Part shown: positions 57,901-60,900 of the stretch, piece after piece
How positions within the stretch are numbered: the stretch's first letter is position 1
How the letters are laid out: every line of letters begins with the position of its first letter
Assembly: GCF_048403405.1 (NCBI RefSeq)
Contig: NZ_CP183135.1
DNA from: Escherichia coli
GTDB taxonomy: Bacteria; Pseudomonadota; Gammaproteobacteria; Enterobacterales; Enterobacteriaceae
Length of the DNA: 64,000 nucleotides
Direction: 5' to 3' (one strand)
Made by a program: the position numbers

Positions 57901-60900
57901 GTTAGACCGCCGGTCAGCCCTGCTGACACGGTTGCCAGCGTACTTATCGTCTGCTTCTGCTCTTCACTGAGGTCAGACAGCTTCACTCCCGGATACAGCA
58001 TTCCGATCGCTCTGGCTGCCAGCTCTCCTGTTGCTGCGCCTGCTGCACCAGCAGCAACATTATTACTCTGCATTGCTGCTACTGCACCGCCCAGAATGGC
58101 GTGAGCAATGGCCTTTACTGCCGGGTCTTTTTCTGTTGATTTCAGCAGGTATGCCAGTTCCGGAGCCGAAGCTCCCGCCAGTACTGCACCAACGTCACCA
58201 CCTGCCAGCTATGGCTGGAGATGGTGGATGTTACCGATAATCAAGAAGCCTTAGATATAAGGCAATGTTTTATCTTTCTTTCATACGAAAACCAGTGCTG
58301 CCATACTAGCCCTTTTCCTGTGACATCTAAGCGAGCTCATGTTTATCGGGAAGGGTGTTAAATCATTGTTAATCATACACAGGTAATTATGCAGCGGTTA
58401 TGCATAACTTCATTTCGAGCGTGTGATAACGCCAACACAACCACCAGAATTATAAAATAAAATCACAAAACCTGAGAACATATCACATTTTATCACATTA
58501 ATAATTTTTCTTTATGATTTCATAACTATTTACAGCCTTTTATTAAGCCAAAAAAAGTTAAATTGCAATTATTTCATAATTATTCACGCTACAGTTTTTT
58601 TACTTTTAAAATCATATAAATATATAATCACCTTAAAACAGCAAACTCCACAAAATAATAACAAATAGAGATATTTCCACCCAAATAATGACTATCTATT
58701 CATGAGCTGACATTATGAAATTAATCATTATTTAATGCAAGTAACACAAATTAAAACAAATACCTTAATATCCATTATTGTGTGAATCTCATCACAATAA
58801 TGTTTATTTTACCGCCTAGTATGAACCACGAAATCAATTGAAGTTAGCCGCCATGAAATTAAATACACAACATGGCGCATACCTTTTTATTCTAAAAAAA
58901 TTAAAGGAATAATTATGGAAAAACATTACGTCGGTTCTGAAATTGGTCAATTGCGTAGTGTTATGCTGCACCGCCCAAATTTAAGTCTGAAACGTTTGAC
59001 ACCATCGAATTGTCAGGAACTGCTTTTCGATGATGTACTCTCGGTTGAACGGGCAGGTGAAGAGCATGACATCTTCGCAAATACGCTGCGCGATCAGGGG
59101 GTGGAAGTCCTGCTGTTAACAGACCTCCTGACACAAACCCTTGATATTAAAGAAGCGAAAACTTGGTTACTGGAGACGCAAATTTCTGACTACCGCCTCG
59201 GACCTACCTTTGCGGGCGATGTGCGCAGCTGGCTGGCGGACATGCCGCACCGTGAACTGGCGCGAAGATTAAGCGGCGGATTAACTTACGGTGAAATTCC
59301 GGCTGCCATTAACAATATGGTGGTGGATACCCACACGTCTAATGACTTTATTATGAAGCCGCTACCGAATCATTTATTTACCCGCGATACCTCCTGCTGG
59401 ATTTATAACGGTGTTTCTATTAACCCGATGGCCAAACCAGCCCGTCAACGTGAAACCAATAACCTCCGGGCAATATATCGCTGGCACCCGGCATTTGCCG
59501 ACGGCGATTTTATTAAGTATTTCGGCGACGAAAATATTTATTACGACCACGCCACTTTGGAAGGTGGCGACGTATTAGTGATTGGTCGTGGGGCGGTATT
59601 GATCGGCATGTCTGAACGCACAACACCGCAGGGCGTGGAGTTCCTCGCCAACAGCCTGTTCAAACATCGTCAGGCCGAGCGAGTGATCGCCGTTGAGCTG
59701 CCAAAACACCGCTCCTGTATGCACCTTGACACCGTCATGACCCACATCGACGTTGACACTTTCTCCGTTTACCCGGAAGTGGTGCGCAAAGACGCCCAGT
59801 GCTGGACGCTCACTTCGAACGGACGCGATGGCCTACAACGGACCCAGGAAACCGACCTGTTGCACGCCATCGAGAAAGCACTCGGTATTGACCAGGTACG
59901 CTTGATCACCACCGGCGGCGACGCCTTTGAAGCCGAACGTGAGCAGTGGAACGACGCCAATAACGTTCTGACCATCCGCCCCGGTGTGGTGATTGGTTAC
60001 GAGCGCAACGTCTGGACTAACGAGAAATACGACAAAGCCGGCATCACCGTGCTGCCCATCCCGGGGGACGAATTGGGACGAGGCCGCGGCGGCGCACGCT
60101 GCATGAGCTGTCCGCTTGAACGCGACGGAATTTAAAGGAGCCATCATGGAACGAAAACCCACTTTGGTTGTGGCGTTGGGCGGCAACGCATTATTGAAGC
60201 GCGGCGAACCACTGGAAGCAGAAATCCAGCGCCAGAACATTGAGTTGGCCGCCCGTACCATCGCCGGGCTCACGGTGAATTGGCGCGTGGTGTTGGTTCA
60301 CGGCAACGGTCCACAGATCGGGCTGCTGGCGCTGCAGAACAGCGCCTACGACAAAGTGACCCCTTATCCACTGGACGTTCTTGGCGCCGAAAGCCAGGGG
60401 ATGATCGGCTACATGCTCCAGCAGGCGCTGAAAAACAGCCTGCCACAGCGTGAGGTGAGCGTCCTGCTTACTCAGGTGGAAGTGGACGCTACTGACCCGG
60501 CGTTCAGCAACCCGACCAAATATATCGGACCGGTGTACAACGAAGACCAGGCAAAAACACTGGCAGCAGAAAAAGGTTGGGGGTTTAAGGCCGACGGCAG
60601 CTACTTCCGTCGCGTGGTGCCATCTCCACAGCCGAAACGCATTGTCGAGAGCGATGCTATTACGGCACTGATCCAGCGCGACCATCTTGTTATCTGCAAC
60701 GGCGGCGGTGGTGTACCAGTTGTGGAAAAGGCTAACGGCTATCGCGGAATTGAGGCGGTGATCGACAAAGACCTCTCTGCTGCCCTGCTGGCATACCAGA
60801 TAGGGGCCGACGCACTACTGATTCTCACTGATGCCGACGCGGTTTACCTCGATTGGGGCAAACCGACCCAGCGTCCGCTAGCGCAGGTGACGCCAGAACT

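Follow-up and report, generated by a model that had tools for sequence, protein, structure and literature searches.

The region upstream of arcA, the first gene of an arginine deiminase (ADI) operon in a stretch of Escherichia coli DNA (contig NZ_CP183135.1 of RefSeq assembly GCF_048403405.1; the whole 64,000-nucleotide stretch is called the window), contains a conserved palindrome that matches the binding site of CRP, the cyclic AMP (cAMP) receptor protein. We consider it probable that positions 58186-58914 are the native control region of arcA-arcC-argF-arcD(yfcC)-rosE, that this operon originated in a chromosomal islet of E. coli and has since moved to an IncF plasmid, and that transcription starts at a class II promoter activated by cAMP-CRP, with help given from upstream ARG boxes by the RosE-type regulator encoded in the operon itself.

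A conserved CRP box upstream of arcA

An earlier note, made from the sequence of the window alone, had pointed to a CRP half-site pattern about 120 bp upstream of arcA. The sequence TGTGAatctcaTCACA is found exactly at 58781-58796, and its center (58788.5) lies 126 bp before the arcA ATG (58915). The match is perfect as described, but it is not confined to one half-site, because TGTGAATCTCATCACA fits both half-sites with the correct 6-bp spacer between them. All 10 core positions agree, with G and C at the positions that discriminate CRP sites. Perfect TGTGA-N6-TCACA sequences occur twice in the window, whereas 0.07 are expected from shuffled sequences. With an approximate weight matrix, the 22-mer at 58778-58799 scores 18.0 bits, which is the top rank among 63,979 positions and level with the best training sites; by the same approximate measure, just 0.2% of shuffled versions of the AT-rich intergenic DNA score as high. 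In all other cases, CRP, FNR and ArgR sites were scored against published consensus strings.

To follow the box across relatives, 80 arcA loci were collected in a scan of one genome per species, and 28 of these are other Enterobacterales loci. Of these 28, 26 retain the xGTGA-N6-TCACA arms between -107 and -159 relative to the ATG (mostly -122 to -134), and no second site that differs from the CRP core by at most one mismatch is present in the 800 bp upstream of any of the 26. The genera represented include Enterobacter, Kosakonia, Citrobacter, Cedecea, Pseudescherichia, Superficieibacter, Serratia, Erwinia, Rahnella and Tatumella. In the alignment, the GTGA and TCACA arms are invariant, whereas spacers and flanks vary freely. 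When 18 representative taxa are anchored on the box, the information per position amounts to 1.62 bits for the arms but drops to 0.32 for the spacer and 0.36 for the flanks. The box is also present in the E. coli chromosomal alleles, and the same 16-mer lies at -131 before Salmonella STM4467 (canonical locus argI, yjgK, STM4467-STM4463, pyrL). A weaker TGTGA-N6-TCTAA is kept upstream of arcA in Vibrio, Photobacterium and Aeromonas.

This pattern bears directly on the possibility that the palindrome and the ARG-like sequence described below are both chance matches in an AT-rich spacer. The region is 25-34% G+C, a composition in which AT-rich motifs such as ARG boxes arise easily, and promoter-like matches are no more frequent there than in shuffles. 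However, the low expectation for perfect CRP cores in a window of this size argues against coincidence, as does the finding that both motifs stand at fixed offsets across genera whose flanks can no longer be aligned. A chance origin of the CRP box is refuted by this phylogenetic footprint, and coincidence as the source of both motifs is extremely improbable.

Another possibility is that the palindrome is the target of FNR or of some other oxygen sensor of the Crp/Fnr family, as with ANR in Pseudomonas and ArcR in Bacillus and Staphylococcus, in which case it would confer anaerobic rather than catabolite control. Crp/Fnr-family anaerobic activators do occupy the equivalent position in other ADI operons (review PMC4813224), and two Tatumella species read TTTGA-N6-TCACA, a CRP/FNR hybrid. 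The two kinds of site are told apart by GTGA/TCAC (CRP) versus TTGA/TCAA (FNR), and the discriminating bases are CRP-type (G/C) rather than FNR-type (T/A) in the window and in 24 of the 26 Enterobacterales boxes, the exceptions being the two Tatumella species. Moreover, the palindrome shows three mismatches or worse when scored as an FNR site. We rejected the FNR reading on these discriminating bases and regard it as highly unlikely. The palindrome is supported by the comparison as a functional-looking, conserved CRP box whose location is in keeping with activation from a class II site.

The second perfect CRP core of the window, TGTGATTAATTTCACA at 52062-52077, also ranks second by the weight matrix. 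It is located downstream of a gene that aligns with finO in an identical plasmid record, and about 85 bp before a short open reading frame (ORF) that begins at 52160 and appears to be interrupted by the end of an IS1 element near 52201.

Predicted class II promoter

A TAnnAT hexamer begins 28.5 bp downstream of the center of the CRP box, and its T and A at +28/+29 carry 1.7 bits. The hexamer reads TAGTAT in the window and TACTAT, TATTAT or TAAGAT in other taxa. At the -35 position the sequence is ACAATA, and no usable -35 element is present. Because the conserved TAnnAT stands at this distance from the box and a usable -35 is lacking, the arrangement most likely represents a promoter activated by CRP in class II fashion; the box would be centered near -41.5, transcription would begin near 58830, and the leader would be about 85 nt long. 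In such a promoter, cAMP-CRP would bind the palindrome with high affinity and overlap the -35 position of the TAGTAT promoter. Transcription would be expected to need cAMP-CRP and to be shut off by glucose, since both follow from the class II activation proposed. Sites returned by a generic sigma-70 scan (for example 58599-58628, 10/12) were rejected as the main promoter; they are no commoner than in shuffles, and their hexamers are not conserved in Enterobacter.

CRP might instead bind here without activating from -41.5. Transcription could begin upstream, for example from TAATAT (58766-58771) driven by the upstream dyad described below, so that CRP would cover +1 to +20 and repress; or the palindrome could work as a class I site serving a start located further downstream. 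TAATAT is conserved in the group of E. coli, Enterobacter, Kosakonia and Citrobacter and lies 27.5 bp past the center of the FNR-like dyad, and the main start position is itself a prediction. Yet Cedecea, Serratia, Erwinia and Rahnella, all of which have the CRP box with TAnnAT at the class II distance, do not share TAATAT, and E. coli, Salmonella and Citrobacter have a degenerate form of the upstream dyad. Binding without class II activation is an unlikely arrangement on this evidence.

Two conserved single ARG boxes

The earlier note had also described a sequence at about 58573-58586 as resembling half of an ArgR operator. The sequence at that place, TTCATAATTATTCA, is two mismatches from TGAATWWWWATTCA. 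The likeness to an ARG box holds, but the site is not half of a tandem operator; it belongs to a complete 18-mer (58571-58588) and is one of two conserved single boxes. Each of these, the distal box and a proximal box at 58687-58704, matches WNTGAATWWWWATTCANW at 13 of 16 positions (8-9 of 10 in the core), and no 14/16 site is found in the region. The 729-bp intergenic region contains five sites of 13/16, where local dinucleotide shuffles predict 1.34 (P about 0.01). The operators of E. coli arginine-biosynthesis operons have two boxes about 3 bp apart, whereas the single boxes seen here are 116 bp apart, equal to 11 helical turns.

The significance of 58571-58588 derives only from the conservation of its position across species. 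Every upstream region was scanned with WNTGMATWWWWATKCANW, and positions were expressed relative to the CRP center. ARG-like matches pile up at two offsets: -207/-208, where 10 of 21 representative taxa agree within 2 bp, and -92, where 8 do. Most other 5-bp bins are empty (479 of 600), and nearly all the rest hold three matches or fewer, with one minor peak of five near -260. Cores at the distal offset reach 10/10 in Cedecea, Pseudescherichia and Tatumella (e.g., AATGAATAATCATTCACT), and the E. coli chromosomal alleles read ATTGCATAATTATTCGCG at the distal box. The ARG-like site of the window is located exactly where orthologous promoters have a good ARG box. For the proximal box, the right half ATTCA is invariant in the alignment of E. 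coli with Enterobacter, and the box is also found in Salmonella.

Relative to the predicted start, the proximal and distal boxes lie at about -134 and -250, where they would be bound by the RosE-type hexamer encoded in the operon and possibly by ArgR. The RosE-type protein would then assist activation from upstream, possibly through the formation of a loop in this very AT-rich DNA.

The regulator encoded by the operon

The ArgR-family gene downstream, of which the window holds the 5′ part, had been taken for argR. This identification did not stand, since the product is not the housekeeping repressor but a paralog of the RosE/STM4463 type. It is 35% identical to E. coli ArgR, and its score of 108 bits falls under the 194 bits required by the NCBIfam ArgR equivalog cut-off. 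In contrast, its identity to the syntenic Salmonella protein is 79%, and the recognition helix, ISQSTVSRLL, is the same in both. Where the regulator reads SQSTVSRLL, ArgR reads NQSKVSRML, which is consistent with a cognate winged-helix protein of the ArgR family. The Salmonella protein STM4463 reportedly acts as an activator of ADI expression. The syntenic Salmonella protein is STM4463/RosE, as it contains EGISQST, which is encoded by the STM4463 primer used for quantitative reverse-transcription PCR in PMC3075218. RosE is a DNA-binding ArgR paralog located on this islet (PMC2328253), and control of STM4467 expression by STM4463 is stated in the title of Choi et al. 2012 as cited in PMC4813224.

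The arc operon on an IncF plasmid

The window is from an E. coli IncF plasmid and includes CopA RNA (56973-57063) and sok RNA (56009-56165). Positions 58200-58950 are 100% identical to many IncF plasmids, for example p4_2_1.1. Among 5,426 complete E. coli genomes, 361 contain this region, and plasmids account for 298 of its 365 places. About 5% of complete E. coli genomes have the arc operon, mainly on IncF resistance plasmids. Genes for ADI, carbamate kinase, catabolic ornithine carbamoyltransferase and an arginine/ornithine transporter are all matched by NCBIfam models and run in a single direction together with the ArgR-family regulator, and the RefSeq annotation agrees. In the RefSeq annotation of identical plasmids, the order of the neighborhood is a truncated repA, a fragment of a VENN-motif pre-toxin pseudogene, arcA, arcC, argF, a YfcC-family transporter gene and an "arginine repressor" gene, with remnants of insertion sequences at the flanks.

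Chromosomal copies in E. coli are about 98% identical upstream of the operon and adjoin CdiA-type orphan toxin genes and pyrL. This neighborhood indicates that the plasmid module, including the VENN fragment, derives from that islet. At the left edge of the arc module, the first ~55 bp of a divergent gene of the YhcH/YjgK/YiaL family remain (58186-58260, aligned with 5265-5330 of relative L003). The start codon of this remnant is gone (CAT to CAA on the + strand), and it marks the boundary of the mobilized islet. In another IncF plasmid, NZ_CP090323.1, an IS1 element is inserted within the arcA upstream region.

Candidate elements for anaerobic control

The earlier note had proposed catabolite or anaerobic control of the operon. 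The CRP type of the palindrome agrees with the first part. Anaerobic control is not carried by this palindrome, because its discriminating bases are not FNR-type and a separate FNR-like dyad is mutated in the plasmid allele. Most genera have, at a fixed 49-50 bp upstream of the CRP center, a cTGAy-N4-ATCAa/t dyad that scores 8-9/10 (cTGAT-N4-ATCAt or aTGAC-N4-ATCAA), and E. coli chromosomes read TTGATGCAAATAAC there (8/10). An FNR site (TTGAT-N4-ATCAA) typically has at least 7-8 of 10 matches, whereas the window dyad has 6; the dyad is also degenerate in Salmonella and Citrobacter. With the dyad at about -91.5, the promoter of the relatives would be of the tandem kind known as class III.

A perfect match to the direct repeat recognized by the phosphorylated response regulator ArcA (ArcA-P), GTTAA-N6-GTTAA, is found further upstream. 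The repeat is kept at -419 to -424 from the CRP center, with a variable spacer, in E. coli, Enterobacter, Kosakonia, Citrobacter, Pseudescherichia and Salmonella. It is closer to the divergent yjgK-like gene (YhcH/YjgK/YiaL family) that relatives carry and that has been lost from the E. coli islet, and it may serve either this lost gene or the arc operon. In Salmonella, STM4463 mRNA is down by 2.6 to 6.4 log2 units in an anaerobic arcA response-regulator mutant (PMC3075218), and an ArcA motif has been predicted upstream of STM4467 (PMC3848847). A near-invariant block common to E. coli and Enterobacter, TTATGCAgcggTTATGCATAA at 58387-58407, consists of a 7-mer direct repeat with an 11-bp period and is probably part of the regulatory DNA of the divergent gene that was lost.

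Plasmid and chromosomal alleles

The plasmid allele was compared with three chromosomal alleles (L082, L083 and L084), and the differences were polarized with Enterobacter and Salmonella. Fixed differences between plasmid and chromosome number 12 in 715 bp upstream and 15 in 5,086 bp of the operon, and the ArcA protein is identical in both. Accelerated evolution of the promoter was considered and rejected, as 12/715 versus 15/5086 roughly equals the divergence expected at synonymous sites; only the placement of the changes is unusual. Half of the upstream differences (6 of 12) fall within 56 predicted operator-core positions (binomial P = 1.4e-4, post hoc), and the CRP box and -10 hexamer are unchanged.

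Two changes derived in the plasmid allele affect the FNR-like dyad, which is brought down to 6/10: G to A at 58734, by which a half-site G is lost, and A to G at 58741. Position 58692 in the proximal ARG box is changed as well. In the distal ARG box, the change at 58586 (G to A) creates ATTCA in the right half, and TGCAT has become TTCAT at 58574, where chromosomal E. coli, Enterobacter cloacae and Salmonella keep the G. The distal box could be a decayed relic that is nonfunctional in the plasmid allele, in which case arginine control, if any, would operate via the proximal box only. The T that replaces a conserved G fits such decay, and the match is just 13/16 in very AT-rich DNA. However, the gain of ATTCA leaves the overall score unchanged, and mutating the equivalent far-upstream box of Vibrio fluvialis, which contains TTTGCATAA, cuts activity 8-fold (PMC11172107). 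The loss of function is a real possibility that we nevertheless consider doubtful.

The operator-core substitutions of the IncF plasmid allele are a modest lead and no demonstration. One speculative and rather unlikely extension is that the promoter was rewired after leaving the chromosome, making ADI expression CRP-dominated and oxygen-independent, with the RosE hexamer looping via boxes phased at 11 turns to assist CRP. Such a change could add to the urinary benefit and gut cost of extended-spectrum β-lactamase (ESBL) E. coli.

Weighing the proposed control scheme

Several points weigh against a CRP-activated class II promoter assisted by upstream ARG boxes. The CRP weight matrix was built from 18 classical sites and is approximate; it is not a curated-database matrix. 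The spacing between box and hexamer places the box at -40.5 or -41.5, depending on the choice of the start base in a predicted start region. In Salmonella, the -10 sequence at the equivalent place is poor, reading AATCAT and shifted by 1 bp. Each ARG match is weak when taken alone (13/16 in 25% G+C DNA), and the distal box of the plasmid allele has lost a conserved G. Finally, no paper linking cAMP-CRP to an enterobacterial ADI operon was found in a full-text literature search, which returned no published CRP site for the Salmonella STM4467 promoter either.

A CRP box and ARG boxes before a catabolic operon represent textbook regulation, and the architecture is ordinary; for this operon, no published description of the CRP site was found. 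If cAMP-CRP and an arginine-sensing RosE or ArgR do switch on the operon, expression would be expected in glucose-poor, arginine-containing niches. In ESBL-producing strains, the arc operon has been associated with a trade-off in fitness, with a benefit in urinary infection and a cost in the gut (Billard-Pomares 2019, as summarized in 10.64898/2025.12.08.692488). Control of the kind proposed would offer a simple and testable explanation for this niche-dependent benefit, and the explanation would extend to Salmonella, where the same operon matters for virulence.

Features of the region and of the leader

The coordinates of the features discussed are collected in Table 1. For the hairpin predicted in the 5′ untranslated leader, no Rfam family is found in the region at the gathering threshold or at E values up to 1, and consequently it does not correspond to a known RNA element. 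The hairpin is followed by a conserved CCTTTTTATTCT-A-run that could pair with the Shine-Dalgarno sequence AAAGG. A 19-codon ORF (58853-58912) stops 2 nt before the arcA ATG, and its frame is kept in three relatives via compensating indels. As an arginine-attenuator leader peptide this ORF was rejected, because it has no arginine codons and is broken in two relatives (L004 and L006). Just past the predicted start is an 8-bp palindrome, TCAATTGA (58835-58842), that may be the binding site for some dimer; Citrobacter has TCAGCTGA there, which is also palindromic.

Table 1. Features in and around the arcA control region (positions in the window)
Feature	Position	Strand	Description
ArcA-P-type direct repeat	58357-58372	+	GTTAA-N6-GTTAA, GTTAAatcattGTTAA; perfect match
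Distal ARG box	58571-58588		ATTTCATAATTATTCACG; 209 bp upstream of CRP center; 13/16 to Maas consensus
Proximal ARG box	58687-58704		AATGACTATCTATTCATG; 93 bp upstream of CRP center; family consensus aaTGCGTAgnnATTCAt
Degenerate FNR-like dyad	58732-58745		TTAAT-GCAA-GTAAC; 50 bp upstream of CRP center (about -91.5); window reads TTAATGCAAGTAAC, 6/10
CRP box (22-mer)	58778-58799		core TGTGA-N6-TCACA at 58781-58796, center 58788.5; exact match, weight-matrix rank 1, conserved arms
Predicted -10 hexamer	58817-58822	+	TAGTAT; TAnnAT conserved at +28 to +33 from CRP center across genera; predicted start about 58829-58831
Hairpin in predicted 5′ untranslated leader	58849-58877	+	RNAalifold 8 pairs, 3 with compensatory changes; in minimum-free-energy fold, z = -2.0 (modest)
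arcA, arginine deiminase	58915-60135	+	first gene of arcA-arcC-argF-yfcC(arcD)-rosE; NCBIfam TIGR01078, 532 bits; RefSeq annotation of identical plasmids
ArgR-family regulator (RosE/STM4463 ortholog), 5′ part	63678-64000	+	gene cut by window end; identified by translation

Comparison with known systems

The closest known counterpart is the Salmonella enterica ADI islet STM4467-STM4463 (arcA-arcC-arcB-arcD-rosE), which resembles the window in gene order, in the CRP 16-mer at -131 and in ARG boxes at -92 and -208. The ArcA-type repeat is likewise shared (at -422 in Salmonella), as is the regulator, with the 79% identity given above. Unlike the Salmonella islet, the operon in the window is borne by an IncF plasmid and adjoins a fragment of a CdiA-type (VENN) pseudogene; its divergent yjgK-like gene has been lost, and its operator cores show allele-specific changes. 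Some Salmonella have a second ADI locus, arcA-arcC-argF-argR-like without a transporter, whose ArcA is 85% identical. This locus (L086, L087) was rejected as a comparison, as its upstream region differs and does not have the CRP/ARG architecture.

The ansB promoter of E. coli is a tandem class III CRP/FNR promoter with sites at about -41.5 and -91.5, where FNR binds the proximal site and CRP the distal one. Both ansB and the window have two sites of the Crp/Fnr family about 50 bp apart, but the order is reversed in the window, with CRP proximal and a degenerate FNR-like dyad distal.

In Pseudomonas aeruginosa, arcDABC is controlled by the oxygen sensor ANR, which acts on a TTGAC..ATCAG box, and the ArgR of this organism is an AraC-type protein. 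The proposed scheme is similar in that a Crp/Fnr-family activator overlaps the -35 position and an arginine-responsive helper acts from upstream. In the window, by contrast, the box is CRP-type and the helper would be a hexamer of the ArgR/AhrC type. Control of arcDABC by ANR with ArgR is indicated by the titles of Gamper 1991 and Lu 1999, as cited in PMC4813224 and PMC11172107.

In V. fluvialis, ArgR activates arcACB from footprinted boxes located -359 to -282 from the ATG, one of which contains TTTGCATAA (PMC11172107); the E. coli chromosomal box contains TTGCATAA. Features shared with the window are several single ARG boxes placed far upstream, their TGMAT cores, and a leader region that is long and rich in AT (PMC11172107). 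The V. fluvialis system differs in that its regulator is the unlinked housekeeping ArgR, arcD forms a separate operon and the mapped start is at -63; a role for CRP was not examined there. The single ARG boxes of the window also resemble the activating single boxes of both Vibrio and Bacillus arc promoters (PMC11172107).

The arc operons of Bacillus licheniformis, Staphylococcus and Streptococcus are like that of the window in their dual control by Crp/Fnr-family and ArgR/AhrC-family proteins encoded in or next to the operon (PMC4813224, PMC5452487). These systems use a dedicated ArcR or FlpS together with CcpA for catabolite repression, whereas global CRP itself appears to be used in the window. 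The arrangement upstream of arcA is most likely the enterobacterial counterpart of the ANR/ArgR and ArcR/ArgR schemes that control ADI operons elsewhere.

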